A DNA stretch of 64,000 nt from an uncultured cyanobacterium (GTDB taxonomy: Bacteria > Cyanobacteriota > Cyanobacteriia > PCC-9006 > JAAUQQ01): NCBI GenBank assembly GCA_963718615.1, contig OY970368.1, positions 992,001 through 1,056,000 on the forward strand. Direction: 5' to 3'. Within the stretch, counting starts at the first letter, position 1. Every line of letters starts with the position of its first letter. Positions 9,942 through 33,832 of the stretch are shown one piece after another. Position numbers and translations under genes: made by a program. Below the pieces are notes generated by a model. That model was not told the origin of the DNA and did not search any database. It saw only the letters and a list, made by a program, of their open reading frames with translations.

Positions 9942-12173
9942 ATGGCGAAAAAACACAGCTTTTCTTCCCGGATTCAAAAGGCCATTCATTCTGAAGATAC
10001 AATTCATAACGGTTCTGCCAACGACTCCTTTGATCAGGTCTTAGCAAGAGCTCGCGTGGGGCGACGGGGGTTTCTCAAAGGCAGTTCATCCCTGGTGGCG
10101 GCTTCTATGCTGGGAACAGGGCTGTCTTTTCTGGCCGACTCAGCCCATCCTGCCCGGAAAGTTGCTCAAGCTACTACAAAGGCTTCTCTGAGCTTCAATC
10201 CAGTGGCCAAGACTATCACTGATAGCCTGACTGTTCCGGAGGGATATACGGCGAGAGTTTTATTGGCAACGGGTGATCCGATTCATCGGGATGTTACTCC
10301 CTATAAGAATGATGGGACCGACGATGACTTCGCAGGGCGGGCCGGCGATCACCATGACGCGATGCAATACTTCGGCATGGACTCCTCGGGTACGAAATGG
10401 GACTCTAAGGGTAGCGATCGCGCCCTCCTCTGTATAAACCACGAAGTTTGTGAAGACCTGGGCTTCATCCATCCCAATGGCCCAACGGACTATGGCCCCG
10501 AAGCGATCGCCCCTCGTCCTCCCACAGAAATCGATAAGGAAGTTGATGCCCATGGAGTGAGCGTGATTGAAATCCTGCGGCAGGGTGACACTTACCAGAT
10601 CAATCGTGACTCCCGGTACAACCGACGAATCACGGGCACAACCCTTTTTGAAATCACGGGGCCTGCTCGTCGCAGCCCGATGATGGCGACCGTTTTTTCT
10701 CCCAGTGGCGAACAGACCCGTGGAACCCTGAACAATTGCGGACATGGATACACGCCTTGGGGAACCTTTCTCAGTGGCGAAGAAAACTGGGCTGGATATT
10801 TCCATCGTCGCGAAGCGGATACGGCCAGAACCACCAAGGACGTAGCCTCGTTCAAACGCTACGGTATTGGTTCAGCGACTTCGGGGCGTTACAACTGGTC
10901 ACGAGCTGGAGCCACCGATAGCACCGACCACTATCGCCGTTGGGACGTCGGACAAACAGGCAGCAGCGCTGAGCAAGATTTTCGGAATGGGGCCAATGCC
11001 TTTGGTTGGGTTGTGGAAATTGATCCCTTTCATCCCAATGCTACTCCTAAAAAACGTACTGCCCTAGGTCGATTCGCCCATGAGGGAGCCTGGTCTGCTC
11101 CAGTGGTTGCTGGACAGCCCCTTGTGTTTTATATGGGCGACGATGCTCGCAACGAATACATCTATAAATTTGTTTCCGCCGCTGCCTGGGACCCTCAAGA
11201 TGCCACCAGAGGGCTGGAGGCTGGCAACAAGTATCTGGATGCCGGTACATTGTATGTGGCCCAATTTCAGGATGATGGGACTGGGGAGTGGTTGCCCCTA
11301 ACCCTCAACAATCCCAAGATTGCCAACTACACGACCTATCCCTTCGCGGATGAAGCTGATGTGGTAATCAATGCCCGTATCGCCGCCGATGCCGTTGGAG
11401 CCACGAAGATGGACCGTCCTGAGTGGGGCGGGGTCAACCCGGCCAATGGAGAGGTTTATATCACGCTGACCAACAATGTCTCAAGCAGTAATGGGCGAGG
11501 GTTTAAGACTCCCCTTGATGCCGCTAATCCCCGTTTCTATGGGGACGAGAAAGGCTCCAAAACCACTCAGGGGAATGTTAACGGCCACATCCTTCGTTGG
11601 CGTGAAACCGCTAGCAACTCTGCCGCGCTGTCCTTTTCCTGGGATGTTTATCTATTTGGAGCCCAGGCCGACGCAGAGGCGGACGTCAACCTTTCGAATC
11701 TCACGGATGAAAACGATTTTTCAAGCCCTGATGGCCTTTGGTTTAGCGAAGCAGTACCCGGTTTGCTATGGATTCAAACCGATGATGGTTATTACACCGA
11801 TCGTACCAATTGCATGATGCTAGCGGCAATCCCCGGAGCCGTGGGGGATGGTGGCACAAAAATGGTGACCAATAAGGCTGTACCCACGAATAGCAATTCG
11901 GATCAAACCCTCCAAACCTACCTGGGGCAGCCCGCTAGCCCAATGGTGTTACGGCGCTTTTTGGTTGGTCCTCGGGATTGTGAAATCACTGGCATCACTG
12001 AATCGCCCGATGGCAAGGTCCTTTTCGTGAATATTCAGCACCCCGGCGAGAATAGCCCCTCGGTTACTGATCCGAGTCAATTTACAAGCCATTGGCCGGA
12101 TGGGGGAAATGCGCGTCCCCGCTCTGCAACGGTCGTGATTACGCGCAATGATGGCGGGAAGATTGCGGTTTAG
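9942..12173 (+). CDS. phoX: Alkaline phosphatase PhoX (Tat-exported)
   Basis: GRRGFLK Tat motif; NNCG..TPWGTFLSGEEN, GRFAHE, MDRPE, SPDG, NIQHPGE motifs. Confidence 0.94.
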   Translation: MAKKHSFSSRIQKAIHSEDTIHNGSANDSFDQVLARARVGRRGFLKGSSSLVAASMLGTGLSFLADSAHPARKVAQATTKASLSFNPVAKTITDSLTVPEGYTARVLLATGDPIHRDVTPYKNDGTDDDFAGRAGDHHDAMQYFGMDSSGTKWDSKGSDRALLCINHEVCEDLGFIHPNGPTDYGPEAIAPRPPTEIDKEVDAHGVSVIEILRQGDTYQINRDSRYNRRITGTTLFEITGPARRSPMMATVFSPSGEQTRGTLNNCGHGYTPWGTFLSGEENWAGYFHRREADTARTTKDVASFKRYGIGSATSGRYNWSRAGATDSTDHYRRWDVGQTGSSAEQDFRNGANAFGWVVEIDPFHPNATPKKRTALGRFAHEGAWSAPVVAGQPLVFYMGDDARNEYIYKFVSAAAWDPQDATRGLEAGNKYLDAGTLYVAQFQDDGTGEWLPLTLNNPKIANYTTYPFADEADVVINARIAADAVGATKMDRPEWGGVNPANGEVYITLTNNVSSSNGRGFKTPLDAANPRFYGDEKGSKTTQGNVNGHILRWRETASNSAALSFSWDVYLFGAQADAEADVNLSNLTDENDFSSPDGLWFSEAVPGLLWIQTDDGYYTDRTNCMMLAAIPGAVGDGGTKMVTNKAVPTNSNSDQTLQTYLGQPASPMVLRRFLVGPRDCEITGITESPDGKVLFVNIQHPGENSPSVTDPSQFTSHWPDGGNARPRSATVVITRNDGGKIAV

Positions 12174-12314
12174 GGTATCCCTAACTACTGACGGTCTTTT
12201 TTTGAGGACACTTCTTTTCCTAAGAGCTTGATCGAGTTAAGGTCGAGCTCTTTTCTTAATTCTGAATGGGCTCGATTAAAATGGACAAGAGTTTGTTCAT
12301 CCTCATACAATCCT

Positions 12315-13340
12315 ATGGCTCCCGCAATTCTCATTGAGAAGCTTCAAAAATCCTACGGTTCGGTGCAGGCCGTCAAAGACGTCTCGCTCCAGGTGGAAGC
12401 GGGGGAGATTTTTGGACTATTGGGTCCTAACGGTGCGGGCAAAACAACGACGCTGCGCTGTCTCTGTACCTTGAGCACGCCCGACGCGGGTAAGCTGGAA
12501 GTCAGTGGGGTGTCGGTTGTGGCGCAGCCGAAGTTGGCGCGGCAGAAGCTGGGCTATGTGGCCCAGGAGGTGGCGCTGGATAAGGTTTTAACGGGGCGGG
12601 AACTACTGCGGCTTCAGGCGGCGCTGTATCACTTGCCGAAGCAACGGATTGGCGATCGCGTCCAACAAGTCATCGATCTCCTCGGCATTGGCGATTGGGC
12701 GGATCAAAAGACCGGCACCTACTCTGGCGGCATTCGTAAACGCCTAGACCTGGCGGCGGGATTGCTACACCAACCTAGCGTTCTGGTTTTGGATGAACCA
12801 ACGGTGGGTCTGGATATCGAGAGCCGCACGGTGATTTGGAATTTTTTACGCGGTCTAAAGGCCCAGGGGATTACGGTTTTGCTGACCAGCCACTATTTGG
12901 AGGAAGTGGATGCCCTGGCGGATCGGGTGGCGATTATTGACCGGGGGCAGGTAATTGCGGTAGGGACGCCGTCGGAGTTGAAGGATCGGGTGGGGGGCGA
13001 TCGCATCACGCTCCGCATTCGTGAATTCACCCCTGACGAAGAAGCCCACCAAGTCAAGCAGATGCTTGAGCAACTTCCCTTGGTGCAAGAGGTGATCCTT
13101 AATGCGGCCCAGGGCAATTCTTTAAACCTTGTGGTTGATCCCCAAGCAGATGCCTTAGCAACGGTGCAGCAAGCTTTGCGGGAGGCGGGGTTGCCGACGT
13201 TTGGGATAGCCCAGGCGCGACCTAGTTTGGATGATGTCTATTTGGCGGCGACGGGACGGACGTTGATGGATGCGGAATTGGCGGCGGCGGGGAGTCGGGA
13301 TTTGAAGAAGGAGAAGAAACAGGCGATGAAGGGTTTGTAG
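12315..13340 (+). CDS. ABC transporter ATP-binding protein (DrrA-like)
   Basis: GPNGAGKT, YSGG, LVLDEPT; likely start ATG 12315. Confidence 0.93.
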   Translation: MAPAILIEKLQKSYGSVQAVKDVSLQVEAGEIFGLLGPNGAGKTTTLRCLCTLSTPDAGKLEVSGVSVVAQPKLARQKLGYVAQEVALDKVLTGRELLRLQAALYHLPKQRIGDRVQQVIDLLGIGDWADQKTGTYSGGIRKRLDLAAGLLHQPSVLVLDEPTVGLDIESRTVIWNFLRGLKAQGITVLLTSHYLEEVDALADRVAIIDRGQVIAVGTPSELKDRVGGDRITLRIREFTPDEEAHQVKQMLEQLPLVQEVILNAAQGNSLNLVVDPQADALATVQQALREAGLPTFGIAQARPSLDDVYLAATGRTLMDAELAAAGSRDLKKEKKQAMKGL

Positions 13341-13390
13341 GGGCATGGGGCATGGGCATGGGGCAAGGGACATGGTGGTGGGGACATGGC
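13341..13390. repeat. Degenerate heptamer tandem repeats (GGGCATG-like, STRR type)
   Basis: Read directly after the ABC gene stop codon. Confidence 0.6.
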
Positions 13391-13459
13391 ATTGCCATAT
13401 CCCTACTCTCGTCTTCTGTGAATTCCTGGAACAATACCCCGATGTACAAACGGCACAAG

Positions 13460-13672
13460 CTAGGACTGAGACCCAACTGACACAGTTCTTTCGGGGAGGA
13501 GCAAGGAAGCAGTTTGAACTTCAAGTGTTCCTGGAACAGGAGGATCAATATTTACAAGTTCACGACATACAACTTTAGGGATAATGACCTGATTATAGAG
13601 TTGAGGTAAAAGTTGTAAGTGATGAATTGCCGCCAGATTCGTCAGCATCGATGTATCACTGATAACGATTAA
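13460..13672 (-). pseudogene. Truncated DUF3368 (PIN-domain) toxin
   Basis: IVISDTSMLTNLAAIHHLQLLPQLYNQVIIP..V..EL; no intact start codon; homology lost after ~55 aa. Confidence 0.7.
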
Positions 13673-13858
13673 AGCCGTCCCAACTCCTGCAAGTTTTTCA
13701 AGTCTATTGCAAAATCTTCCACGTCGTAGGAGTAGAGAGGTATGTTTTGCTGCTTAAGGAGTTGACGAAAAGCATTCAGGGGCACTTCTGCTAGCTTACT
13801 AGCATAACCTATCGTCAGATAACTAGTTTGGAATAGATGTAGGGCAATGCAGATTAGG
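13669..13858 (-). pseudogene. UPF0175-family antitoxin fragment
   Basis: Manual translation IALHLFQTSYLTIGYASKLAEVPLNAFRQLLKQQNIPLYSYDVEDFAIDLKNLQELGRL*; N-terminus missing; overlaps the DUF3368 fragment. Confidence 0.7.
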
Positions 13859-13917
13859 TCTCTATCTTGTTGCTCGATTGAACTGCTTTAGGTTTTGAAT
13901 AAATCAAATACGAAGAT

Positions 13918-14058
13918 GGCTCTGATAGCTCAGTTCGGCTGACAATCAAAACTGAGTATCAGGTGGTTGGGGCTGGCTTAAATTCGCTCAAACATTACTT
14001 TAGAGTTGTTTTTCACTTTCTCTATTGATCCCGTCCGACTCAGGACCTATGTTAGGTG
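13918..14058 (-). other. Degenerate attC site of the distal cassette
   Basis: On the minus strand CACCTAAC follows the gene stop; CTGAGTCGG...CCGAACTGAG arms are present; the far core is decayed (ATCAGAG). Confidence 0.55.
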
Positions 14059-14096
14059 TTTTCTTATGCATCCAGCTTGTTATAAAGACAATGCTA

Positions 14097-15779
14097 CTAT
14101 ACGGGGCTTAATTGCTTGCTAATTTTGTACATCTCATCATGATTTAGCTTTAAGAGAGGCATACGAATTAAACTCCCATTTAGAGAGATGCTTCCTTGTT
14201 CCCACTCTACTACTGATCTGTTGTAGATATCTATTAAAAGTCTATCTGTAACCGTCTTAACGTCTGCAAGATTCAAGTTTTCGGAGGATAGGATTCTATG
14301 TACGACTCCGTTAAGCAATTGAAGATTAAGCACAGTAATATCTTTTTTTAGCTTCCAAACTGAATGAGTGCCAAGACCAGCACGGCACAATAGTACACTT
14401 ACACATTGAACGTTCTCGACTCTTATTTCAAATATTTCCGATATTACAGAATCACGCTCATCTTGAGGTAAATCTTGAAAACGGTTAAGTTGCTCTATTC
14501 CCTCTTTTGAACGATTTTCAACAGCTTTTGTCATTCTTGCACCTTGTGGTGGAATAGCTGCTTTCGCTTGAATATGTACCACTGTATTAGCGCTTGATTG
14601 ATAGATGAGTAAATCAAATTCTCCCTTGCTCCAATTTTTATTAGAGACGATCCTTAAACCTGGTAGTCTTTCCCATATTTCTAAAGCTTGCTTTAAAAGT
14701 GTGGGTTCAAGATGCTGTGAAACAATATTGTTGAATTGAGTCGTATTGCATCTGTTAAGAACATAGAAAATGTTTCTTGTTGCCAACATTGATCGAAGAA
14801 TATATGGGCTAAATAAATAAGAATGCGAATAATCTATTAAAGGTGGGAAAAAACCTTCACCAGAATTTTCAAAATTCTGATTGACAACATCAATAGTGAA
14901 GAAATTTAATATATTTTCAATTGCAGAACTTTTAACGTTTGTTAAAGCCATTAATAACCTTATAAAAAAGCTTTTAGCATTAAAAACTGCAACCCATTCG
15001 TAAAATTCGTGAAATAGAGTTTCCTTTCTTGTTTCACTGCTTTCATTAAGCCAAAGAAATTCTAAAGCATTTGCAAGACCAATACTGTAGTCTGCATATG
15101 CGAATAGTGCAGCCCTGATCTTACAAAACTCTTCCCATGTTGTCCCAATAGATATTTGGAAAGCGTTTGGCTCTAAAATTGGTATTTCCTTAAAACTATT
15201 TAAACGATATTGAAATAGATCGGCTAATACTCTACACATCAAAGCCATATTAATATTAGGAAGTTGATCCGCTAGTTCAATAAATTCTTGCTTTAAATTA
15301 GGAGCTTCACCAACTAAGAACGTTAAGCTAAGTTCAGTTAAAAGAACATCGTACTCTTCAGCTCTTGAAAATTCTTCATTGGGATGTATAAGCTCAAACC
15401 CTTCCTCGATTTTTCTGACCTCATAGTAACCGCGCCGTACTTCAGGCATAAGTTCGCAAAAATGGGCATAGGATACTAGCTCTCGAAAATCTTTGACGAA
15501 CAGTGCAGTAGCTGAAAAAGCATCGATTGCGCTAACTCCTATTTGTGAAGTGCATTTTCTCAGCAAAGGGATTAAGTAAGAAAGTCTACTACTTAATGCT
15601 TCACCTTCTGCTTGATTCTTAGATATGTTGTGACCAAAGCGCTCACCCTGAATCAGAATGTCGATTACCACAAATAAGCTTGTTAAAACACTCCTAAGCG
15701 GTAACTGAAACATATCAGACTGAACAATTTTGTTGTCAATTTCACCTTCGAAAGAAAAAAGATCATCTCGATCGCTCAT
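14097..15779 (-). CDS. Cassette-borne hypothetical protein with C-terminal PD-(D/E)xK-like nuclease motif
   Basis: AT-rich 560-aa ORF; E...GEFDLLIY...VVHIQAK. Confidence 0.6.
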   Translation of the reverse strand: MSDRDDLFSFEGEIDNKIVQSDMFQLPLRSVLTSLFVVIDILIQGERFGHNISKNQAEGEALSSRLSYLIPLLRKCTSQIGVSAIDAFSATALFVKDFRELVSYAHFCELMPEVRRGYYEVRKIEEGFELIHPNEEFSRAEEYDVLLTELSLTFLVGEAPNLKQEFIELADQLPNINMALMCRVLADLFQYRLNSFKEIPILEPNAFQISIGTTWEEFCKIRAALFAYADYSIGLANALEFLWLNESSETRKETLFHEFYEWVAVFNAKSFFIRLLMALTNVKSSAIENILNFFTIDVVNQNFENSGEGFFPPLIDYSHSYLFSPYILRSMLATRNIFYVLNRCNTTQFNNIVSQHLEPTLLKQALEIWERLPGLRIVSNKNWSKGEFDLLIYQSSANTVVHIQAKAAIPPQGARMTKAVENRSKEGIEQLNRFQDLPQDERDSVISEIFEIRVENVQCVSVLLCRAGLGTHSVWKLKKDITVLNLQLLNGVVHRILSSENLNLADVKTVTDRLLIDIYNRSVVEWEQGSISLNGSLIRMPLLKLNHDEMYKISKQLSPV

Positions 15780-15937
15780 TACTCTTACCCGCTAAATATA
15801 TAGGCTAACCTAGTCTAATATAAAGGGAGCCACCAGAGGCTTGTTACAGTTCACAACTGACACCTAACGACCTCGTTAGACTGATTGGCAAGATAGCTGG
15901 CCCTTAATTTGTTCAACGCATCCTGGTAAATCATGGG

Positions 15938-16341
15938 GGTAGTGCCTTTAGCTGGGGGATGAGTATGGTGTGGCCATTAGAGAAAGAAAAAGCAAACTGG
16001 GTAAGACCCTTCTGTGCCAATTGCAATGACTCAAGAGCTGCTTCATTGTCCTAACTGTCTATCTGAAGATATCAGCCGTAACGGCTTCAACGATCGCGGT
16101 ACTCAAAGCTATAAATGTCGAGATTGCCGTCGCCGGTTTGTCCTGACTCCGAAATCCCTTCCCTTGAGCGATCTGCGGCAAAGGGTGTCGCGCTTGGTGC
16201 GAAAGGCGCTCTCGTTTTCAAAGAAACAAGAGAACCACGAGGCTGCGATCTGGAATTTCGTTCACCATTACAACCAGCCATTGCGCCTTAAGCAGGCACA
16301 TGCCGCTTCATTCTCTCCAGCACCCACATAATTGGACTACC
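15938..16341 (+). mobile_element. Internally deleted IS1-family element
   Basis: Imperfect terminal IRs GGTAGTGCCTTTAGCTGGGGG / GGTAGTCCAATTATGTGGGTG. ORF 16014..16331 fuses an InsA Zn finger (CPNC..YKCRDC) to an InsB C-terminus (LRQRVSRLVRKALSFSK). Confidence 0.85.
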
Positions 16342-16727
16342 CTAAATTGTATGGGCCAATTCCTGAGTTAGATGGGTGGTTGAGGCGACGAATTCGGATG
16401 TGTTATTGGAAACAATGGCGCAGACCGAGGACTCGCATCAGTAACCTGTTGAAGTTGGGGACACCGAAGCAGCACGCTTTTTCTACTGGCTTGAGCCGGA
16501 AGGGATATTGGCGGTTGTCGCGGACGTTGGCCACGCAGACGGGTATGACAAATGAGTGGTTGGCACAACAGGGATTGCTTTCGATTCGTGACCTATGGAT
16601 GAAAGTCCAGGGCTACGAAGAGAAGCCTGTCAGTTTGTCTAGCAGTTAGGTTGAGAACCGCCCATTGCGGAGCCGCACGATGGGTGGTGTGGGAGGGGGG
16701 ATTCGTGAGGATTCTCCCTATCCCGAT
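16342..16727 (+). mobile_element. 3' remnant of a group IIC-attC intron (maturase C-terminus plus domains V/VI)
   Basis: ELDGWLRRRIRMCYWKQW...SRKGYWR; domain V GAACCGCC..CGGAGCCGCACGATGGGTGGTGT; ends CCTATCCCGAT and is followed by the attC core remainder TGGGCTGC. Confidence 0.88.
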
Positions 16728-16846
16728 TGGGCTGCTGGCAAGACACTCAAGTTAGCGGCAATGCCATAAACTCTGCTTTTCTAGTCGCAATGTTCTGGTG
16801 TTGTTTGTCAACACAAAAATGGAATCGTACTCTGCCGAAATTCCTC

Positions 16847-18427
16847 CTATAACCTGCACGCTTCTAAGCGAGAGAAAAGACTTGGCACTCCTCTAACCCA
16901 ACCTCCCGGTCGGGGTAAATGTCCTAACGGAGCCGATGAATCAAAGATCAAATCATAATACGGTATCCAAATACTTTTTAATCGCCATCCGACGCGGTCG
17001 CCAAACTTTTCATAAGTACTATCATCATAATTGTCATCAAGCTTGCCACCACATTCTAGATAAATTTGCTTCTGAATACTGAAACCAAATTTACCGCTAC
17101 TGTATTTCACCCACAATTCATCAAGGGTGCGGAGATCTAAACAGGGGAACTGTCTTATTTCTTCCTCCCTAACCCAGTCGCTTTCTCTCCGACCAATAAG
17201 CTTGAGTATGATCTTATAAGTTTCATAATCAGCTTCTTTCCATCTCCCAGCCTTTAACAAATCTCGGAGTAAAGTATAGTCCAAACCCCGCTCAGAACTA
17301 AGGTTATCGTGGGATGCTTCAACAGTCAAAGATGAATGTTGGGTGGAAGCAGACTGCTCAGCAACTACCTGTGCTTCAATTGCTGCAATATCTTCATCTC
17401 GTAAACCTAAATATTGCCGATAGTCTTTCAGATCCCTTAGAGATCCTTCACTTATAGGATTCTCCACCTGCATTACCTCAAGCAATGCCTCTTTATATTC
17501 TTGCAGTTTGCGTCGGTACTCTCGATGAGGTTGTAAAACCTCAACCTCAATTGCATGTGCCTCCGCTTCCGACAAGCCAAGTTGTTGTTTCAATACGTGC
17601 AAGACTCTACGAGCTACAGAGGATAATTCATCACGACTGGCAAAACGTTGTAATTCTTTGCGATATCTTAGTTTTGAATTGTCTACAGGTACTTTGGCTA
17701 GCAGAATCTTGTAACCTTCCGCAGCAGTGTAAAACATAGGAGTCATTGCTGGAGCAGCCGCTCTCACTTTGGCTTGAACGTACTCATGTAATTCATCAAC
17801 AGCAATAAAACCATCACTATCTAAATCGGCTGCTCCCGTTGCAATCCCCTCAACTAAATAACGGGTATAAAGTGACAGGTCAGATTCCTCCTGCCAAAAA
17901 GCATACTGGGTAGAGCTAGAGGAGGTTAGAATAGCACGTCCAACACCACCTAACTGTGCCCGGATATCGATATGGTCGTCGTCTCTGACAGGTAAAATCT
18001 TTACATCTCGACCAAATGTTCCACTAAAATCGCAATCTAAAATGACTACCTGTCTACGAGAACGACCATTACTCATCATCTCTTGAATGAATCTAGCTGA
18101 AACAGCAGTAGATTTTGCGAATCTATCCTTATCCTTTCGAGTGTTCCGAGTAGCTAAATAAATCTCTTCATTGTCGTCTTTAATTCCATGACCAGAGTAA
18201 TAGAATAATACCAAATCATTATTCTGGCTCTTAGAAAATAAATCATCTATGGCTTCTTCCATCTCTTGTCTACTTGGATTAGCTAGTAGAGAAGCCTGGT
18301 CAAATCCACCTACTTCGGGGTCTCGTAAAACGCGAGCCATTGCCTCGGCATCTACTCCTGCGCTTGGGAGTGGATTTAACCCCAGTTCATACTCACTCAC
18401 CCCTATCAATAGTGCAATTTTAGCCAT
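16847..18427 (-). CDS. Caspase-like (peptidase C14) plus helical linker plus GUN4-domain protein
   Basis: KIALLIGVSEY, YYSGHG, ILDCDFSG; C-terminal GUN4 motifs (LRDLLKAGRWKEAD.ET, LW..YS.GKFGFSIQK.IY, APLGHLP). Confidence 0.85.
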   Translation of the reverse strand: MAKIALLIGVSEYELGLNPLPSAGVDAEAMARVLRDPEVGGFDQASLLANPSRQEMEEAIDDLFSKSQNNDLVLFYYSGHGIKDDNEEIYLATRNTRKDKDRFAKSTAVSARFIQEMMSNGRSRRQVVILDCDFSGTFGRDVKILPVRDDDHIDIRAQLGGVGRAILTSSSSTQYAFWQEESDLSLYTRYLVEGIATGAADLDSDGFIAVDELHEYVQAKVRAAAPAMTPMFYTAAEGYKILLAKVPVDNSKLRYRKELQRFASRDELSSVARRVLHVLKQQLGLSEAEAHAIEVEVLQPHREYRRKLQEYKEALLEVMQVENPISEGSLRDLKDYRQYLGLRDEDIAAIEAQVVAEQSASTQHSSLTVEASHDNLSSERGLDYTLLRDLLKAGRWKEADYETYKIILKLIGRRESDWVREEEIRQFPCLDLRTLDELWVKYSSGKFGFSIQKQIYLECGGKLDDNYDDSTYEKFGDRVGWRLKSIWIPYYDLIFDSSAPLGHLPRPGGWVRGVPSLFSRLEACRL

Positions 18428-20333
18428 TGTCTATCTCATGAGTAACAAATGCTAGTAAACTGTGAATCTCATCATTATCAGACTCTATATCTAATGCCTT
18501 TCTGAGTTGCTCCTTTGCTAGTTCAAACTCTTTTTGCAGTCTCAAATCTCGACCGTACCCTAACAGTGCTTGAATATAGTTTTCTTTAGTTCGTACTGAA
18601 TCAATCTGAAATCCCCTTGCATAAAGTGCTGACGCTTTACCAAAATCCTCAATCTCTAAGCACGCTGCTGCCATATTAAGTAGAGCACTAAAATGATTGG
18701 GGTTTAAATCTAGTACCTGACTGTATAGATCAAGCGTAGTTGTCATCTCACCCTTCTGATGCAACTCCATTGCTCCTTGATAAATACGATTAGCCTCTGG
18801 CTCCAACTTCTCCAACTCTCTTATTTCCTGGCGGAGTGGATAACGTTTGATTAACCAACGGCGGACAAGTTCAATTTTTACTTTATATGCGGGTGCTTTG
18901 GAATCTTTTATAAAATCTAGGAAATTCCATTCAACCAGTCGTTTTTCAGCATCAACTAATGGTTTAGTCCGAACAACTCCATATCCCTCCAACAACTCTA
19001 GTGGTAGAACTAATTTAGATTCTACTCTGGGTAGCCCAAGTGTTAGAACCTGTCCCACACGAACGTGCTGTAATTCTGTACTGACTACAACTGCCCCTAG
19101 TCTTGGATCATAGGAAGCGATCCAGGCTGTAGAGGGTAACTCACGCATCAGATAGCTATATAACCAGGTTGGAGCACGACCCGTAATGACTATTCCAATG
19201 TTCGTATCAATCTCTTCAGGTAGCTCTAGATTTACGAGATCCTGCGGCTCGATAACCCCACTTTCAGAGAGAAGTTCTATGGTTAACCACTGATATCTTA
19301 AACCTTCATAATCTTGCTGTTCACTTAATTGAAAGCGAACTGAGGCATTAGATGTTTGACTAATGTTACTTTGAATATCTAAATCACTGACTTCTTTGTT
19401 GGCTTTCTTTTGAGCTTCTGCTACAGCCGAAAAGACAACCCGTTCAGGAATGGGCAACCCATCTCGAAACCATGCTAAACCCGCTTCACCAATCTCAATT
19501 GCTCTATCTACAATTCTTTCTACATTTTCACAAATAATTTTCCAGCTTTGTTGCTCTCGTGCGTATCCAAAAAGCGTAAAACATATTAATTGTGTAAAGT
19601 AAGGATGTCCTGCTGAGAGGTTAAGAATTGCTTGTATAGCTGCTGAATCGTACTCTAATATTTCTTTAGCAGGTTCAACAATTAAACGCTTCGCACTCGT
19701 TTCATCAAGCAAACCAATCTCTTGACTAGGCGCTTCTTTGAATAAACTGAGTAACTTTGGCATGTCATCCAGTCGTCGTCCCACAACCGGAATGAGAAAA
19801 AGTTGTTTCTGTCGATGAATGATTGACTGTAAGTAGGGAAAAAAGTGTTCAACTGCTGTCTCTGGGTTATAGCTACTTAAGACATCAAACTCATCCATTA
19901 ACAAGACTAAGTTTCTGCCTCGCAATGCTTCATAAACTTGAGACAGAAAAATGCGAGAGAAAGCACTTGAATCTTCTTTCAGTTCCGTTGCTGAAGGTAA
20001 TGTTATCTCTTCTAATGGCAGTTCAAGTTGATCGACAATTTCCATAGCAAGATAGTGCAACACATCACTAAGAGGTGTTTTGCTTCTATCTTGAAGATCA
20101 AAGAGTACAAAAGAAAACTCGTTCAATCCGACACACCTTGGAATTTGAGAGAGTACAGAAGATTTGCCAATACGCCGTTGACCATGCAGCAAAATAACTT
20201 TTGCACCTGACTTCAGATTATCCTTAACGAATTGAAATAAATTTTCTCGCCCAAAAAACAGATCTGGCTTGTCGATCGGACTGCCAATGTCATAAGGATT
20301 TCTCCGAGATTGTGGAGACATCATAATCATCAA
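18420..20333 (-). CDS. P-loop (STAND/AAA-like) ATPase with inserted Csx3-like domain and C-terminal TPRs
   Basis: NPY..G.P..FFGRE, GQRRIGKSS, LLMDEFD, SAGHPYFTQ; Csx3-like GIVITGRAPTWLY..WIASYDPRLGAVVVST at ~19040-19350; TPR tail. Confidence 0.85.
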   Translation of the reverse strand: MMIMMSPQSRRNPYDIGSPIDKPDLFFGRENLFQFVKDNLKSGAKVILLHGQRRIGKSSVLSQIPRCVGLNEFSFVLFDLQDRSKTPLSDVLHYLAMEIVDQLELPLEEITLPSATELKEDSSAFSRIFLSQVYEALRGRNLVLLMDEFDVLSSYNPETAVEHFFPYLQSIIHRQKQLFLIPVVGRRLDDMPKLLSLFKEAPSQEIGLLDETSAKRLIVEPAKEILEYDSAAIQAILNLSAGHPYFTQLICFTLFGYAREQQSWKIICENVERIVDRAIEIGEAGLAWFRDGLPIPERVVFSAVAEAQKKANKEVSDLDIQSNISQTSNASVRFQLSEQQDYEGLRYQWLTIELLSESGVIEPQDLVNLELPEEIDTNIGIVITGRAPTWLYSYLMRELPSTAWIASYDPRLGAVVVSTELQHVRVGQVLTLGLPRVESKLVLPLELLEGYGVVRTKPLVDAEKRLVEWNFLDFIKDSKAPAYKVKIELVRRWLIKRYPLRQEIRELEKLEPEANRIYQGAMELHQKGEMTTTLDLYSQVLDLNPNHFSALLNMAAACLEIEDFGKASALYARGFQIDSVRTKENYIQALLGYGRDLRLQKEFELAKEQLRKALDIESDNDEIHSLLAFVTHEIDNG

Positions 20334-20408
20334 TCCTGAGCCATGAGATCGAAGAGAAGACAGTAAAACAACTATAAGTAGAACACGTACTCTATACTCA
20401 ACAAGCAG

Positions 20409-21707
20409 CTAACCTGACACAAACCCTTTGGGAATGGCACTAACTAGCTTGCTAACCCATTCAATAACAGAGGGCACTTCGTCCTTATGCTGCCACAAAT
20501 ATCGAATCCCAGTTTTAACTTGCTCTGCTTGCTTGCTGCTCATTAGGTTGAGAAAAACCTTTTGGCGTTGTTGAAGTTCCTCCTCGTTGCTATTCTCGAT
20601 TTCTTTAATTACCCACCACTCCATCATTGACGAGGCAAATGCATAATTTGGTCTGCCCTGTTGCATAGTTCGGATAATTACTCCCCGTTGTTCCAAATCT
20701 GTCAATTCACGCTCTCGTTGACTAAAGACGATGCTGATGTCGCCCAAGTCATAATTCTTACGCTGTAAACGACCTTTTAGATTAGATAGAGCAATCAACA
20801 TTAGAAGTGTCTGTTCCTCCTGATTTGACATTTCCCAGGTTTGTTGGAAAAATTGTTCAGTTGCACTCAGGAAGTCTCGCGTGAATGCTTCAGGATCGGG
20901 CATCTGCCCAGTATGGAGTTTGTCATATAAAAGATAACCAGCATGTTGAATCAGTGCTGGATGTCCATCAGTAATTTCTCGAATCCCCTCCCGCAGTGCC
21001 GTTGTCATTGGCATACAACCTAATAAAGTATCAATTTCACTATCAGTAAATGGTTTGAGAGGTTGAAATAGGTAGTGATTATACCACGGAGACTTATCTG
21101 GCGAGAGCTTGGGTCCAAGTTCGTTGAGCCGACGAAATGAAGTCACGATCATTGAGAGACAACCTTTACTCTGAACTGCCAGGTTACGAGTCTCGCTCAG
21201 GAATATCTCTATGCTGCTCTCCTTATACTGATCATGCGGACGGAAAGCAGCATCATAGTTATCTAGCAGCAGCAGTAGAAACTTATTTTGTTTTCCTATT
21301 TGCTTCAAGAACTGACGTAAGTCATCCTTTGTTGCTTCAGCCTTCCTAAGGGATTGGTCGATCCCAGTTTGTAAAAGGTCATCATCAACAAGTTCGTCCT
21401 TGATCAAGCTTAGGATCTCTCGCCAGAAGGTAGCTGGTAGAAAGGGCATTATGCCCAAGCAGTCCAGGTAGATAATGATAGATTCAGAATGTTCACATCC
21501 ATAGTGTTGCCAAACTTGAGGAGAAATCAGCAGTTCCAAAAAAGATGACTTACCCATCCCCGCTCCACCCCAGATGGCTAAACTGCTACGACTAGCGATT
21601 CGATCAAAAGCAATACCAATTTCAGATGCCCATCCGACAAAGCTTTCTGAAGAAACTAACTTTCCAGGAGAAAAGGGATTTTTTGACATGGCATTCGCTG
21701 AGTCCAA
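20409..21707 (-). CDS. P-loop (STAND/AAA-like) ATPase
   Basis: NPF.PG..FVG, GGAGMGKSS, Walker B LLLLDNYD, TDGHPALIQ. Confidence 0.85.
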   Translation of the reverse strand: MDSANAMSKNPFSPGKLVSSESFVGWASEIGIAFDRIASRSSLAIWGGAGMGKSSFLELLISPQVWQHYGCEHSESIIIYLDCLGIMPFLPATFWREILSLIKDELVDDDLLQTGIDQSLRKAEATKDDLRQFLKQIGKQNKFLLLLLDNYDAAFRPHDQYKESSIEIFLSETRNLAVQSKGCLSMIVTSFRRLNELGPKLSPDKSPWYNHYLFQPLKPFTDSEIDTLLGCMPMTTALREGIREITDGHPALIQHAGYLLYDKLHTGQMPDPEAFTRDFLSATEQFFQQTWEMSNQEEQTLLMLIALSNLKGRLQRKNYDLGDISIVFSQRERELTDLEQRGVIIRTMQQGRPNYAFASSMMEWWVIKEIENSNEEELQQRQKVFLNLMSSKQAEQVKTGIRYLWQHKDEVPSVIEWVSKLVSAIPKGFVSG

Positions 21708-21900
21708 AGGTCTTGATTAGGAGTTTTCCTTTGACTAGCTTAGCCCCACTGATACTTTTTGAGTACTACTCCTACAAATAACGAGAAGCAGCCCAACGTC
21801 GTAGCTGAGCCGCACCCGTCAATCTGCCAATACTGGCGACAACGTCGTCAGGACGGCTCGCTGAGATGTGAATGCTGTCGTGTCGGCTCCAGCGCAGTGT

Positions 21901-22370
21901 GTACGCCCAGCATGGGCGTGAGCTAATGGGGTGAAAGTCCCCTGTGGGAGAACCAGCCATCCAAATGCTCGTATTAATTGGAGCCGAGAGATGGACAACC
22001 ACTAGCCTAAGGCAAGGGCGTCTTCGCGAGAAGGGGTCGGTCGGAAACCAGACTTTTGGATTGCGTCTGCTTTCGGGTAAGTCGCTTTTCTAGGCTCTGT
22101 TTCACCGTGGGAACTCCCTATTAGCGCCAGTGTCACTTGCAATGAGTTTCTGATTGCGCCCAGCTCCTAGCTTCGATCTCCCGAATTCCGAGTCGGGTCA
22201 TCGTGGGCAGATCAGGAGTCACATCCGAGTTTGATGGAAGGGACTTTCACCCTCATCAAGAGGACAGTTCAGCTCTTGAGAGTGCTTCATGTTTGGAAGC
22301 CAAGCTGGCAGAGTTATTTATGGGCTTGCACCGTTATTCATCTGCAACGAATCGCACCCCCTATCCCGAT
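21901..22370 (+). mobile_element. ORF-less group IIC-attC intron remnant (5' end plus 3' tail)
   Basis: Begins GTACGCCCAGCATGGGCG..GGTGAAAGTCC and ends CCTATCCCGAT; inserted at GT|TAGGT. Confidence 0.8.
22046..22357 (-). mobile_element. 5' fragment of a second group II intron (different class, probably IIB/CL) nested in antisense orientation
   Basis: Minus strand begins GTGCGATTCGTT and contains GGGTGAAAGTCCC; the left boundary is approximate. Confidence 0.65.
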
Positions 22371-22406
22371 TAGGTGTTGCTTAGATGTCACTTATCTAAG
22401 AACACT

Positions 22407-23234
22407 TTAAACATTTGCTTGCTGTAAAAGCTTTAAAATAGAAGTTGAACGGGTCATATAGGAAAGCCCAGTATGATGAAACATTGGTGGCACAGATGTT
22501 TCATCCCAAAAATGACCAGACATGATTCCCGCAAGCAATGCAGGTCGCCAAGTCGGATCGTCTATATCCCCGCCAGGACGAAATCCTCTCGCTGGCAAAA
22601 AGACCGGGCTACCACTTGATCCAGAAAAAGACAATCCTGATACAAGAATTATATCGTCTGTCTTTATTTGGTCGTTAGTGAATGATATCTGTGGCAGAGA
22701 AGCTACTGTACATTGACGGGCTACAGGAAGTTTCCATTTTTCATCCCACCAGTGCCGGCCATTCTTCCCTGGAAAACCGATAAAGAAGGATGTTTCCATC
22801 GGTCCAATAATTAGACTATTGGCAAAGTTTTTCTCATCAATAAGGTTTTCAAACTTAAGAATTTCTCTATTTGGATCGAATGGGGTTTCTTCATGGAATA
22901 CAGGTTCAACAAGAATAGAGCAGTCAGAAGATGGGGAAGAGAATAAACAACTTTCTATATTTGCCACATCAAAGAAATCTGTATTCTCTGCAGGCTGGTT
23001 TGATTCATAATATCGTAACTCTATAGAAATCCTATCGAGCTTTAATCCTGGCTTGTCGGGGAATCTTATAGATGGATCAACATTATGTTTGTTGGTGACA
23101 AAAATATTCTTTCCAGTCTGGGAAATCATCCAAAATCCAGTACCACAACCAGATTTTTCGTTTCCTATATCATCCGTAAAATTTACTTTGATGCGGTGGA
23201 TCATCCAAAAAATCTTTGGGTTAAGACCAAGCAT
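22407..23234 (-). CDS. Cassette-borne trypsin-like serine protease
   Basis: GTGFW, VTNKHNV (His), SDCSIL (Asp), SGSSGSPVF (Ser). Confidence 0.82.
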   Translation of the reverse strand: MLGLNPKIFWMIHRIKVNFTDDIGNEKSGCGTGFWMISQTGKNIFVTNKHNVDPSIRFPDKPGLKLDRISIELRYYESNQPAENTDFFDVANIESCLFSSPSSDCSILVEPVFHEETPFDPNREILKFENLIDEKNFANSLIIGPMETSFFIGFPGKNGRHWWDEKWKLPVARQCTVASLPQISFTNDQIKTDDIILVSGLSFSGSSGSPVFLPARGFRPGGDIDDPTWRPALLAGIMSGHFWDETSVPPMFHHTGLSYMTRSTSILKLLQQANV

Positions 23235-23299
23235 ATGGCTGTTCTCAAACTTATTTATCTAAAAAACTAGGTTAGATCTAATACTTGTTGAACTGACTA

Positions 23300-23545
23300 C
23301 ACCTAACAATTTATTCTCATGCACGATGCCTGATAACTCCCTCCTCTCGCTATTCTCAAGTATCAGCGCCGTATAATCCCCAGCCATGACCTATTACCCA
23401 TGCAATTATGCTGGATAACATCCCTGGTTAGGTATTATCAGGCAACGCCGCATGATAACAACCCATTTCCAGGCATTATCCCCGCACAGCCGCCGGATAA
23501 CATCCCTGAGCAGGTATTATCAGGCATGTCTCAGTATAATCATCC
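23300..23545. repeat. First-cassette core plus ~41-bp periodic array of GATAA..TTATC dyads (attI-like region)
   Basis: CACCTAAC at 23300; ATAA at 23333, 23373, 23415, 23455, 23497 and 23536; near-identical 32-mers at 23413 and 23495. Confidence 0.65.
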
Positions 23546-23717
23546 CCTTTGAGTCAGCGTAGAAAATTACAAAATCTTCACCCCCGAGTCAGGGAATCCA
23601 AAGGCTTCAGCCTCGCTTTCCATGCAAACCCAGCCGCCCCAGACACTGTCCCAAAACTGACTCTAGCCAGGGATGCTTCTGTGACATTACACCCATGACG
23701 ACTCCCCGATTCATTGG

Positions 23718-25205
23718 CTACGCCCCCAAAACCGCCTCACCCTGCCGATACAGCTCCCGCGCATAATCCGTCCATTGTCCCTGGCCCCAGTAGCGAAAAC
23801 AGCTAGTTTCTAACAACAGCACATACAAAAGCGCCGCTTGATAATCCGAACGCTGCGTCATCGCAGGATCAGCCGCCACGAGGGCGTCGTATTTTTGATG
23901 AAACTGAATGCTCAAGCGCTGCATCGGTTCAAGGACGTTTTCATAACCCTGGACCCAGCTCAGATCATTCGTCCAGGATGCCCCGTCGAGGTGAAATTGG
24001 GGGTCTGTGTCGCGCAGGTGCTGGATGGCGATCGCCACCCCCTCCGGCGTCACAGAGTCTGTCCCCAGGTGCTGCCAAATCCTATGCTGATGCACCGCCT
24101 GACAGACAGGATAATCCTCAGGCTTAGCGCCTAGGGCTTCAATCAACTCCAAATATTCCGTCCCATTCATCGCCACCGTTCCCGCAGCATTGCCCCCCCC
24201 ATCCCGAATTTCGTGATACACCCGGAAGAGATCACGGGGATACTCGTTCATCATCACACCGCCGTTTTCACCATCCGCAATCTGAGACACCAGCGACGGA
24301 ACTTCAACCTCGCCTAACCGCTGACGGCCCCAGCCCTTGGCTTCAAAATAGGGCTGCATCTGAGCCACTAGCTTGGTGTCCGATCCCTGGGTTTTAATTA
24401 ACGCCGTGATGCTGATACTTTCTCCTTGAGCGTTGCGAGCCACTAAACGGTTGGGCAAATACTTGTCAGATTGATGCAAGCCCGAGCCATCTAGCCGCTC
24501 AACGGAATGCTCTTGCACCAACAACCAGCGATAGCCACAGTCCTTCAGGGCTTTGATATATTCATACAAAACATCGGGATGATTGGGCAAATGCATCTCC
24601 GGCGGCGAAAAGCCCTTGACCCGAGCCAGGGCTGCGGTGCCAAAGGTTGCCGCAAACTGGTGCTGCCAAGCCTGAATATGAAGCTTCAGATCCGGCACTG
24701 GCGTTGAAGGAACAACCGCATGGCTCCACATCGTCCCCAACCATTCCACCTGGAGCTGATAGCGCTGATCGCAGGCAATTCGCCGCAGCTTGTCGAGAAT
24801 GTCTTGCCGCTGCATCTGTTCCAACGCCCAAAGCAAATTGCCCGAATAGTCGAGCATAATGCGGGGATTACAGCCCTGGTCAATCAGTGCGGGGATAAAG
24901 TCCCCCATGCGTCCATAGCAATCTGCAAAGACCCCGGCGTTGTGATTGTCGCCATCGTGGGGATGCTCGAACATGTGTTGCAAATTGGAAATCAACGCAC
25001 CTTCAGGACCCGCCGGAATCGTCGGCTGATGCATATGCAGCGCGCAAGCGAAGCCAGACTGGAGGCGATCGCCCTCTAAATTCGTCCTCCCCAGAAACAC
25101 TGGCTCCGTTCCCTGAACCCAATCCCGCAACTCCGCCTCTCGGCCCGCAATGGGGGGCAAGGATTGACACAGGGCCGGCAACTGAGATGTAGTTTCAGCA
25201 ATCAT
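23718..25205 (-). CDS. Glycoside hydrolase family 57 protein
   Basis: ALHMHQP, GFSPPEM, IADGENGG motifs. Confidence 0.85.
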   Translation of the reverse strand: MIAETTSQLPALCQSLPPIAGREAELRDWVQGTEPVFLGRTNLEGDRLQSGFACALHMHQPTIPAGPEGALISNLQHMFEHPHDGDNHNAGVFADCYGRMGDFIPALIDQGCNPRIMLDYSGNLLWALEQMQRQDILDKLRRIACDQRYQLQVEWLGTMWSHAVVPSTPVPDLKLHIQAWQHQFAATFGTAALARVKGFSPPEMHLPNHPDVLYEYIKALKDCGYRWLLVQEHSVERLDGSGLHQSDKYLPNRLVARNAQGESISITALIKTQGSDTKLVAQMQPYFEAKGWGRQRLGEVEVPSLVSQIADGENGGVMMNEYPRDLFRVYHEIRDGGGNAAGTVAMNGTEYLELIEALGAKPEDYPVCQAVHQHRIWQHLGTDSVTPEGVAIAIQHLRDTDPQFHLDGASWTNDLSWVQGYENVLEPMQRLSIQFHQKYDALVAADPAMTQRSDYQAALLYVLLLETSCFRYWGQGQWTDYARELYRQGEAVLGA

Positions 25206-31782: not shown

Positions 31783-33129
31783 TTAGGTCGTATATTCGGC
31801 ATTAATCTTGACATAGTCATAACTCAAGTCACAGCCCCAGGCGACCCCCTGTCCCAGACCGGCTCCGACCCCAACTTGGATAACGACGGGATGTTCTAGA
31901 TTCCTGGCTTCTAGGGCTGGACGGCGCTGGGCTTGGGTCGGTTCCGTTGTCGCATCCAATAGGGCATTGGCTGACTCGGAGCTGGCGATCGCCTCAGGTT
32001 TAGGCAACGTGCTGCGCTCGGACTGCTGGCAGAGATAATCGTGAGCGGCATCTCGATCAAATTCCAAGGGTTGACCCTGGTCCATCAGGACGATATCTCC
32101 TAAAACAATCTTCAGGTCCTCTTGATCAAACGCCACCCCAGCACGACCCGCAGCGGCAGCAATACGCCCCCAGTTGGGATCGCGACCAAAAATGGCGGAT
32201 TTGAGCAGCGCTGAACCAGCGACGGTCCGGGCAATTTGTCGAGCAGCGGCATCGTCGGCGGTGCCAGAAACCTGGACTTCGATTAAGCAGGTAGCCCCTT
32301 CGCCATCGCGGGCGATCGCCTGGGCCAAGTATTGACATACCGCCGTCAGCATTGCTTCGAGCTTCTCGGCTTCAGGACCAGGTTCCGTAATCGCAGGGGT
32401 ACGGGATTGACCGTTAGCCAGAGCCATGAGCGAATCATTCGTACTGGTATCGCCATCAACGGTGATTTGATTAAAACTTCGGTCCGCCGCTCGGGTCAGC
32501 ATCTCCTGCCAAAGGTGGGGGGAGACCGTGGCATCGCAGGTTACAAACGCCAGCATCGTCGCCATATTGGGATGGATCATCCCCGAACCCTTGGCAATGC
32601 CACCAATCCGAACCGGGCGATCGCCAAACATCCCTTCTACAGCGATCGACTTGGTGACGAGATCCGTGGTGGCGATCGCCTGGGCCGCGTCATCGGAACC
32701 GTCGTCCGTCAGGGCCTGAACAATTCGATCGATCCCCGTGCGCATGGGCTCCATGGGAATTTGACGCCCAATCACGCCGGTAGAAGCAATCAACACCGCA
32801 GAATCCGGAATGCCTAGGGCCTGAGCCACCCGCTGCGCCGACTCTACAGTATTTGCCCATCCTTGGGTGCCGGTGCTAGCGTTGGCCTGCCCCGAATTGC
32901 AGAGAATCGCCTGGGCCGCTGCCTTCTGCTTGAGCTGCTGGCGACAAAAATCAACACAGCCCGCACGAACATGGCTGGTGGTGAAGACCCCAGCGGCGAT
33001 CGCCTCCCCCTCCGAAACAATCAACGCCAGATCCGGCAAGCCCGAAGGCTTTAAACCCGCCACGATTCCAGCTGCCTGATATCCCTTAGGAGCGGTGACT
33101 CCCCCTGGAATGCTGTGCCAATCCGCCAT
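31783..33129 (-). CDS. argJ: Bifunctional ornithine acetyltransferase/N-acetylglutamate synthase
   Basis: KGSGMIHPNMATML, DGDTSTND, DGEGAT, DPNWGR, YVKINAEYTT; start taken at MADW. Confidence 0.96.
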   Translation of the reverse strand: MADWHSIPGGVTAPKGYQAAGIVAGLKPSGLPDLALIVSEGEAIAAGVFTTSHVRAGCVDFCRQQLKQKAAAQAILCNSGQANASTGTQGWANTVESAQRVAQALGIPDSAVLIASTGVIGRQIPMEPMRTGIDRIVQALTDDGSDDAAQAIATTDLVTKSIAVEGMFGDRPVRIGGIAKGSGMIHPNMATMLAFVTCDATVSPHLWQEMLTRAADRSFNQITVDGDTSTNDSLMALANGQSRTPAITEPGPEAEKLEAMLTAVCQYLAQAIARDGEGATCLIEVQVSGTADDAAARQIARTVAGSALLKSAIFGRDPNWGRIAAAAGRAGVAFDQEDLKIVLGDIVLMDQGQPLEFDRDAAHDYLCQQSERSTLPKPEAIASSESANALLDATTEPTQAQRRPALEARNLEHPVVIQVGVGAGLGQGVAWGCDLSYDYVKINAEYTT

Positions 33130-33297
33130 AGCCCCTTTCCAACCCATTTCTGAATGTTCGATATGTTCGATATAGCAGGAAAATCGGTTAAATGGCCTGA
33201 TTTTTCTGTTTGCCGGTTCTTTTGCCGGTTCCATTGTTACAGGTTTCCGGGGCAGATTGAGTACCAGGGAGGGCGGACAAACTTTTTTGCGATCCTT

Positions 33298-33382
33298 TCC
33301 GGAAGTATCATTAGGCACCAGTATAAGTGAATGGTAGATGCACCCTGACTCAATCAAACCTCGGCCTTCGGTCGAGGTTTTT
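33298..33382 (+). ncRNA. nsiR1: NsiR1-like sRNA unit 1 (promoter, RNA, terminator)
   Basis: TCCGGA-N17-GTATAA; GGTAGATGCACCCTGACTCA; hairpin plus T run. Confidence 0.75.
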
Positions 33383-33453
33383 CTTTGTAATTTGGGTATT
33401 GAAGCTATCAGGATGGGGAGGTGCGATCGCCCCAAACAAAAATTCTTTTAGTT

Positions 33454-33540
33454 TCCGGAAACGTCGTATCAATTCAGTATAAGTGAATGGTAGATGCACC
33501 CTGACTCATTTAATCCCCAGCCTAGGCCGGGGATTTTTTT
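33454..33540 (+). ncRNA. nsiR1: NsiR1-like sRNA unit 2
   Basis: Same architecture; terminator AATCCCC...GGGGATT-T5. Confidence 0.75.
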
Positions 33541-33638
33541 ATGGCTTTTAATTTAGAGCAACGGCTCTTTGAATCAGCGCCTTAGACCAACATAGATTAA
33601 CCGTTCAACTGTCCCATAGAAAGAAAAGTTAGCTCAAT

Positions 33639-33723
33639 TCCGGATGTGCCCTAAAGCACTCGTATAAGGGAATGGTAGATGCACCCTGACTCAATTAAAC
33701 CTCGGCCTTCGGTCGAGGTTTTT
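33639..33723 (+). ncRNA. nsiR1: NsiR1-like sRNA unit 3
   Basis: Same architecture; terminator identical to unit 1. Confidence 0.75.
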
Positions 33724-33739
33724 CTTTTTTCTGATACTT

Positions 33740-33832
33740 TCCGGAACCGATCGAATGAGCCAGTATAAGTGAATGGTAGATGCACCCTGACTCATTTAAT
33801 CCCCCGGCCACAAGTGGTTTTGGGGATTTTTT
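33740..33832 (+). ncRNA. nsiR1: NsiR1-like sRNA unit 4
   Basis: Same architecture; longer variant hairpin. Confidence 0.75.

Follow-up and report, generated by a model that had tools for sequence, protein, structure and literature searches.

A probable remnant of a chromosomal integron, with a three-gene cassette and group II introns, in an uncultured cyanobacterium

The stretch of DNA analysed here (the window; 64,000 nucleotides, contig OY970368.1, positions 992,001 to 1,056,000) comes from an uncultured cyanobacterium and contains, at 13.3–23.7 kb, an island that is very probably the remnant of a cyanobacterial chromosomal integron. Coordinates are those of the window unless marked as genome positions. 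Read from its right-hand end, the island comprises an attI region still joined to a stub of the integrase gene intI, two well-bounded cassettes, a proposed third cassette delimited by core matches only, and what is left of a toxin–antitoxin pair; two group II introns and an insertion sequence (IS) of the IS1 family lie among them (Table 1). The cassettes occupy the minus strand and point away from attI, the classical integron layout.

Table 1. Position and strand of the features assigned within the island, listed from the intI stub leftwards
Feature	Start	End	Strand	Remarks
intI stub	23622	23642	+	ATG and the next 6 codons (M Q T Q P P Q); aligned with two paralogous intI loci
Putative attI region and intI-proximal intergenic sequence	23307	23621	−	Predicted crossover G/TT between 23307 and 23306
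Cassette 1, coding part	22407	23306	−	Starts TTAGGTG at 23306, abutting attI
ORF-less group II intron, class-IIC type, 470 bases	21901	22370	+, antisense to cassettes	...GTGT/intron/TAGGTG
attC of cassette 1 (site A)	21791	22377	+ (= bottom strand)	R' GCCCAAC 21791–21797; stem to 21900; R'' GT/TAGGT
Cassette 2	16728	21796	−	5069 bases; starts TTGGGCTGC at 21796; R'' remnant TGGGCTGC 16728–16735 at end
Second IIC-type intron, 3' remnant (386 bases)	16342	16727	+	Maturase open reading frame (ORF) end and domains V–VI
IS1-family element, internally deleted	15938	16341	+	Ends 97–99% identical to ~850-base copies elsewhere
Possible attC 5' part (site B; R' ACCTAAC plus arm), cut by IS	15862	15937	+	From core and position only
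Proposed cassette 3	14051	15867	−	560-residue gene 15779–14097; GTTAGGTG 14051–14058, putative R''
Decayed toxin–antitoxin pair	13460	13830	−	UPF0175 antitoxin fragment 13830–13669; short PIN-like ORF 13648–13460

Cassette 1 extends from 23306 to 21797 and measures 1510 bases, or 1040 without its intron. Its gene (23234–22407) encodes a 275-residue trypsin-like peptidase, with a weak match to Pfam Trypsin_2 (E 0.007) and a match to the PADLOC candidate PDC-S45 (E 1.1e-15). Cassette 2 carries three genes, for an AAA/NACHT-like NTPase (21707–20409), a STAND NTPase–Csx3–TPR protein (20333–18420) and a caspase C14–GUN4 protein (18427–16847). The Csx3 domain of the second product (residues ~330–435) is an insert that separates the NTPase from the TPR repeats; a homologue in the relative G016 (locus L065, 8444–9832) is without this insert, shares 58% identity in the NTPase part and 46% in the TPR part, and retains the neighbouring AAA/NACHT-like gene. 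The 560-residue protein of cassette 3 belongs to an unnamed, sporadically distributed family (64 matches). Residues E387, D389 and K406 are invariant in 19 homologues and Q404 is nearly so, a C-terminal pattern that we take to resemble the PD-(D/E)xK nuclease motif; the name given to a homologue in one source and a weak lead from Atlas to NERD also point to a nuclease. Among 400 other genomes of the phylum, the 560-residue gene has no match at E <= 1e-5. Judged from these domain matches, it is plausible that all of the cargo is defence-like, and the island is probably a defensive one.

Every minus-strand gene block is headed by a GTTRRRY core: GTTAGGT at 23307–23301, GTTGGGC at 21797–21791 and GTTAGGT at 15868–15862, the last within the block start TTAGGTGTCAGTT ahead of the 560-residue gene. 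Written on the plus strand, the same positions read CACCTAAC (both at 23300–23307 and at 15861–15868) and GCAGCCCAAC (21788–21797). Past the last gene of each block the plus strand carries the inverse core that complements the start of the block, namely TAGGTG at 22371, TGGGCTGC at 16728–16735 and GTTAGGTG at 14051–14058, respectively. The original prediction, drawn from the bare sequence, had listed these motifs, all of which are present where it placed them, and had taken the complementarity between the start of a cassette and its own inverse core as the signature of a circular intermediate. The pattern is borne out for all three blocks, over 8 of 8 bases in cassette 1, 9–10 bases in cassette 2 and 8 of 8 bases in cassette 3, and is consistent with such intermediates. 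Given the core consensus, we estimate that the match between the ends of cassette 2 would arise by chance about once in 1000.

Counted together with its complement, the 8-mer GTTAGGTG has 51 copies in the 6.1-Mb genome and four in the 64-kb window, all four within 14051–23307. Shuffles of the whole window gave an expected 1.12 copies, with four reached in 3 of 100; within 13918–23307 (9.4 kb), the four copies seen compare with a mean of 0.186 over 2000 dinucleotide shuffles, one of which held three or more. A GTTAGGTG-type copy at 17947 is intragenic and presumably due to chance. Composition sets the same region apart, as had been described from its AT-richness and lack of HIP1 sites. The GC fraction is 0.35–0.46 over 14–23 kb and about 0.48–0.60 in the flanks, and HIP1 (GCGATCGC), of which the genome has 8800 copies and the window 85, is absent between 12997 and 24028; this marks the host as a cyanobacterium and the island as foreign DNA. 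Other low-GC stretches of the window (0.37–0.46) lie at 33000–34000, 46000–47000 and 61000–64000, and the attC models R1 and R2 described below have no match there.

At the right-hand end, 23302–23642 is ~87% identical to genome 3859325–3859665 and 4713823–4714161, both directly upstream of intI pseudogenes whose fragments were identified with the integron-integrase model TIGR02249. The similarity between these copies begins at a ...YYTAAC/AAYTTATTCTCATGCACGATGCC core (AAYTTATTCT), crosses the intI start codon (ATG at 23622) and continues seven codons into the gene; the break at about 23643 marks the end-point of an intI deletion. In all five comparators (two from this genome and three from the relative G003, one of the latter truncated by the start of its contig), the YYTAAC core is where similarity sets in, and the cassette-side DNA is unrelated. 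A common core with differing DNA to its left is the picture that would be expected of attI ahead of different first cassettes, and it is by homology only that we assign the putative attI, its G/TT crossover included. The stub and attI at 23307–23642 had been overlooked in the original prediction.

The attI region contains repeated GATAAC / GGTATTATCAGGCA motifs. About nine such GATAAC/GTTATC-type motifs lie in 23320–23560 (for example GCCTGATAAC and GGTATTATCAGGCA) and are kept in every copy of attI, here as in G003; they may be extra binding sites for the integrase or for a regulator. One promoter-like site within attI (23461->23434, 9/12 matches) faces the cassettes, and such sites are not enriched (13 versus 19.1 in shuffles).

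The attC of cassette 1, site A, has its R'' interrupted by the 470-base intron, which divides it into 21899–21900 and 22371–22375. With the intron removed in silico, the site has a 12-bp stem, GCTGAGCCGCAC / GTG-T-CGGCT-C-CAGC, in which a T and a C bulge from the 3' arm on the plus strand. A hairpin with two extrahelical bases had been foreseen; it is real, and its bulge pattern is that of the family model. Intact sites of the family read ...GGGTT-GTTAGAC, and the intron therefore sits at GT/T inside R''; the reconstruction put forward earlier (21791–21900 plus 22371–22375) is right to the base.

The family was defined independently of the window. In relatives, eight hairpins abut the 5' ends of introns, and their alignment gives a 12-bp stem with two 3'-arm bulges and compensatory changes in 9 of 12 pairs. 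Model R1, made from only these eight hairpins, finds 27 sites in this genome at E <= 1, 26 of them at E < 1e-3; the sites cluster beside intI/attI loci, and their strand is the one to be expected of cassettes that point away from intI. Its best match in the window is 21804–21893 (15.4 bits, E 0.019). The covariance model R2, made from 28 attC sites (20 of this genome and 8 of relatives, none from the window), has a sole significant match in the window, at 21796–21898 on the plus strand (25.3 bits, E 2.9e-5, model positions 6–79 of 80). This is site A, for which a covariance-model check had been suggested; the next-best match over the 64 kb, with both strands searched and filters off, scores 9.7 bits. 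Across the R2 family, in an alignment that had been fitted to the R2 model, 93.3% of cells pair and double-change cells number 81, against 25.4 in shuffles (0/500 reach 81). The features of an attC, namely R'/R'' cores, an L-box stem with extrahelical bases on the bottom strand and a variable loop, are present at site A only, and not at sites B or C.

Half-site hidden Markov models (HMMs) of the 5' and 3' arms, made from the relatives' sites and those of this genome, rank the 5' arm of site A first at nonsignificant E values (2.3 and 0.2). A genome-wide search that combined constrained folding with exact RYYYAAC...GTTRRRY pairs was of little use, GC-rich repeats dominating the output, and a relaxed scan for such pairs returned nothing in the window. 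At 6 of the 26 genome attC sites (genome 1919952, 2245121, 3852927, 4717584, 4836370 and 3845696), the place of R'', directly after the ...GTT of the stem, is taken by a conserved (T)ATGGGG(G/A)GAC(G/A)GG... sequence. This sequence may represent the terminus of a further element targeting the same spot in attC, or a common cassette end.

Both introns, likewise claimed from the bare sequence, are real and are backed by copies in a relative and elsewhere in this genome. At its 5' end the 470-base intron matches, over its first 144 bases and with 93% identity, the start of a 1980-base intron in the relative G024. This 5' end is kept in eight loci of relatives, where it abuts an attC hairpin with an xxxTAAC core in 8/8 and the insertion junction reads GGGTTGT/.../T. 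The 3' end of the intron is common to six other copies in this genome. Across the 3' junctions here, the next base is T in 9/9, and together with the exon GT, 6/9 read GTTRRRY. A reverse transcriptase (RT) fragment of the full-length G024 intron has its best match in the GsI-IIC RT (E 4e-90, 305 bits; 135 bits versus LtrA and 90 bits versus a IIB RT), which supports class C for this putative IIC-attC intron. The window copies hold no intact intron-encoded protein.

The second intron is represented by its 3' remnant, which is 86% identical to positions 1572–1980 of the G024 intron, matches Pfam GIIM (E 2.6e-5) and ends ...CTATCCCGAT/TGGGCTGC (...CCCGAT/TGGGCTGC). A domain-V-like hairpin in 16650–16700 was read by eye only.

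The two ends of cassette 2 are thus anchored separately, one by the attC model match and the other by this intron junction. Between its genes lie a 75-base gap and an 8-base overlap, spacings that are too small and therefore leave no room for an internal attC; R1 and R2 match nothing inside. The prediction that one cassette is a three-gene unit of ~5 kb accordingly holds for cassette 2. Metagenome contigs of 93–99% identity span the stretch from 16727 to ~21770; the match of one contig begins at 16727, preceded by 135 unmatched letters, which places a boundary at the predicted R'' core. The contigs compared do not cover cassettes 1 or 3 or attI, and we do not count this lack of cover as evidence.

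A cassette of 5 kb had been called unusually large, which the rest of the genome does not support. Nine attI/attC intervals in three other arrays measure ~0.96, 5.3, 7.2, 8.2, 3.0, 0.94, 3.4, 0.97 and 1.4 kb, so that three of the nine exceed 5 kb; the long intervals hold several ORFs, and attC sites of other families within them are possible. We regard it as possible, if on the doubtful side, that integrons of this cyanobacterial lineage routinely capture multi-gene operons of 5–8 kb as single cassettes, and that cassette 2 is a mobile one still circulating in biofilm cyanobacteria.

Cassette 2 is followed on its left by the remnant of the second intron and then by the IS1-family element (InsA zinc ribbon PF03811, E 1.3e-8; DDE_Tnp_IS1 PF03400, E 9.5e-5), which has the GGTAGT... 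ends of full copies. Full copies are flanked by target-site duplications of 7–9 bases and the window copy by none; an adjacent deletion or rearrangement has therefore removed the 5' part of the second intron and the 3' arm of the attC. On the far side of the IS, site B is the putative starting point of cassette 3, with its crossover at 15868/15867. The bounds of cassette 3 follow from the 8-base cores, from position (the left core lies 39 bases past the stop codon) and from first bases like those of cassette 1 (GTTAGGTGT..TCAGTT).

Toxin–antitoxin pairs are a common kind of cassette in chromosomal integrons, and the remnant of one further left (Pfam UPF0175, E 2.5e-11, profile positions 33–75 of 75; PIN_4 weak, E 0.086) may be the rest of a fourth cassette. 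Cassette 3 and this remnant are probably further cassettes whose attC sites are unrecognisable. Nearer the left edge of the island, a GGGCATGGGG-like short repeat run (13340–13400) lies at the junction with an ABC-transporter gene. At the left boundary first proposed, 13922–13962 (CTGATAGCTCAGTT...AACTGAGTATCAG) form a strong hairpin of 13 bp with a single bulged G. We rejected it as the attC of cassette 3 (the bulge is on the wrong arm, and it has no cores and no model match), and likewise a tRNA-like start at 13918, where ARAGORN calls no tRNA.

The leftmost part of the array also bears the best-surviving alternative, which we consider unlikely: that only cassettes 1 and 2 are integron-derived, and that the DNA at 15937 and below was joined to them by an IS-mediated deletion or rearrangement, the left GTTAGGTG cores being an unrelated array fragment or chance. 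An internally deleted IS without the 7–9-base duplication is what such an event would leave, neither 15862 nor 14051 has an attC model match, and homologues of the 560-residue protein elsewhere do not adjoin attC sites. Set against this, an 8-mer as rare as GTTAGGTG stands exactly before and 39 bases after the 560-residue gene in the correct orientations, the block opens with bases like those at the head of cassette 1, and it has the strand, low GC and HIP1 absence of the other cassettes. Moreover, a simple adjacent deletion inside one array gives the same picture.

A second alternative concerns the origin of the whole array, which had been described as integrase-less and CALIN-like (CALIN, a cluster of attC sites that lacks integron-integrases). 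The genome-wide search for intI that had been proposed returned eight TIGR02249 matches, none of them in the window, in keeping with the claim that intI is missing there. One match is an intact gene (genome 948656–949594; 443.8 bits against a cut-off of 265), the nearest to the array at ~56 kb. The description as a cassette array without an integrase gene thus stands; that of a CALIN in the strict sense does not. Because attI and seven intI codons are kept, the locus is a decayed integron that lost its integrase by deletion, and the stub aligns with the lineage of the two pseudogenes, the upstream region and N terminus of the intact intI failing to align. The contrary proposal is a true CALIN, with cassettes that entered a secondary site or were split from the array of the intact 948-kb integron and never had an integrase of their own. 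The absence of intI from the window, with an intact copy not far off, would suit it, but attI and the stub are still joined to the first cassette and the stub fits the two-pseudogene lineage rather than the intact gene, which makes this very improbable. Neither a strict CALIN (which takes two attC sites, where R1/R2 recognise one) nor a complete integron (which has intI), the locus is best named a decayed integron.

No attI homologous to that of the window was seen at the intact intI. A 109-base site of the attC family (42 bits; genome 948280–948388) lies only ~270 bases upstream of that gene, and a nearly identical site that shares its 3' flank lies at genome 5045049–5045157. Four more intI remnants, at genome 3859666–3860405, 4712672–4713822, 4646232–4646402 and 1907122–1907277, each have attC on the expected side. 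The genome is one with a single intact integron and several decayed ones.

Least credible, and already close to refuted, is an ordinary horizontally acquired defence island in which the cores are chance and the introns sit behind terminator-like hairpins: class IIC introns target terminators too (in the available text of PMC7923331), the attC hairpin is not exceptionally stable and a terminator-like call overlaps 21788–21813 on the minus strand, but the homology of attI breaks at the core, an independently built attC model matches significantly, the cores are enriched, the complementarity of the cassette 2 ends is extended, and R1/R2 sites cluster at intI loci, as a terminator family would be unlikely to do.

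Several results weigh against an integron origin of the island or of parts of it. The reconstructed site A folds no more stably than its shuffles (−18.2 kcal/mol, z = −0.27, DNA parameters), and the argument for it as a putative attC is one of family resemblance, not of stability. R1 and R2 recognise one of the three attC sites that had been proposed: site A stands, site B is at noise level with R2 (8.2 bits, E 6.1) and at E 11 with the half-site HMMs, and site C, which consists of a core only, is found by none of them, so that cassette 3 has no R1/R2 or half-site HMM match to an attC. At the closest cassette 3 locus, DNA similarity spans 15818–14097, ending inside the proposed cassette and at the stop codon, and the DNA left of the IS, cassette 3 included, may owe its present position to a deletion or rearrangement. 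R2 has no match near the 560-residue homologues in 12 loci of other organisms, near the NTPase-pair locus of G016, or near caspase–GUN4 homologues (~50%) in 18 metagenome loci. An Rfam scan of 12000–25000 at E up to 1 gave zero matches, group II intron domains included. Finally, the comparison with relatives that had been suggested yielded no empty site: the two core genes flanking the island are neighbours in none of those searched, lying on different contigs or far apart wherever both were found.

On the reading of the island as a decayed integron, its cassettes would have been captured singly at attI via IntI-mediated attC x attI recombination, the IntI coming from the lineage that is now pseudogenised. 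A class-IIC-type intron would have retrohomed into the single-stranded, bottom-strand attC hairpin of cassette 1, entering R'' at TGT/T, and a second would have landed at a like site at the end of cassette 2. Insertion of the IS, with an adjacent deletion, may have truncated the second intron and its attC, and a deletion would also have removed intI. Since intI has been lost and the two internal attC sites are disrupted, the cassettes are expected to be immobile despite the intact IntI ~56 kb off. The array would now be frozen, a static, horizontally acquired island.

Cyanobacteria are among the integron hosts in the available text of Cury et al. 2016 (PMC4889954), where intI pseudogenes are reported near 15/279 CALIN. 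The present locus shares with the chromosomal integrons and CALIN described in that text an attI–cassette–attC layout that reads away from intI, and a loss of intI that leaves the array behind. IntegronFinder there defines a CALIN by two or more attC sites with no integron integrase nearby. With the nearest intI at ~56 kb, the locus agrees with the second part of this definition, but it has one significant attC site where two are called for, as counted with the family models R1/R2. It also differs from the CALIN in that text in retaining attI and a 7-codon intI stub, and from its integrons and CALIN in general by multi-gene cassettes of up to 5–8 kb.

Group IIC-attC introns (S.ma.I2 and relatives) insert into the bottom strand of attC, in R'' at TTGT/T and antisense to the cassettes, according to the available portions of PMC3001079 and PMC7923331. 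The intron in cassette 1 is like those described in these portions in its bottom-strand, antisense position within R'' (GTGT/T here) behind an attC hairpin, in the class-IIC RT of its relative, and in the occurrence of 5'-truncated and ORF-less copies. Unlike them, it has a cyanobacterial host, an ORF-less window copy (470 bases) and no Rfam ribozyme match.

Cassettes with phage-defence systems, termed BRiCs, have led to the integron being viewed as a defence island, as the accessible part of bioRxiv 10.1101/2024.07.02.601719 presents it. By comparison with the BRiCs of that part, defence in our case is suggested by domains alone (STAND NTPase, Csx3, caspase, the PDC-S45 candidate and the PD-(D/E)xK-like motif), cassette 2 combines three genes in one unit, and the array would be immobilised. 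The literature searched brought up no study dedicated to multi-gene cassettes in cyanobacterial integrons, which is a weak negative.

The main interest of the locus lies in its multi-gene cassette and in its clear record of decay. It documents how an integron may break down within a cyanobacterial chromosome, with the integrase cut to seven codons, attC sites lost to introns and an IS, and the genes frozen in place. It also indicates that attC-targeting introns of class-IIC type operate in cyanobacterial integrons. The Csx3-inserted STAND NTPase beside a caspase–GUN4 protein is a candidate conflict system. The multi-gene cassettes of at least 5 kb in this genome stretch the usual view of one small gene per cassette, and rules that require two attC sites within 4 kb easily overlook such arrays. 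If the multi-gene-cassette reading is true, standard finders would be missing arrays that introns, IS elements and wide attC spacing hide from them.

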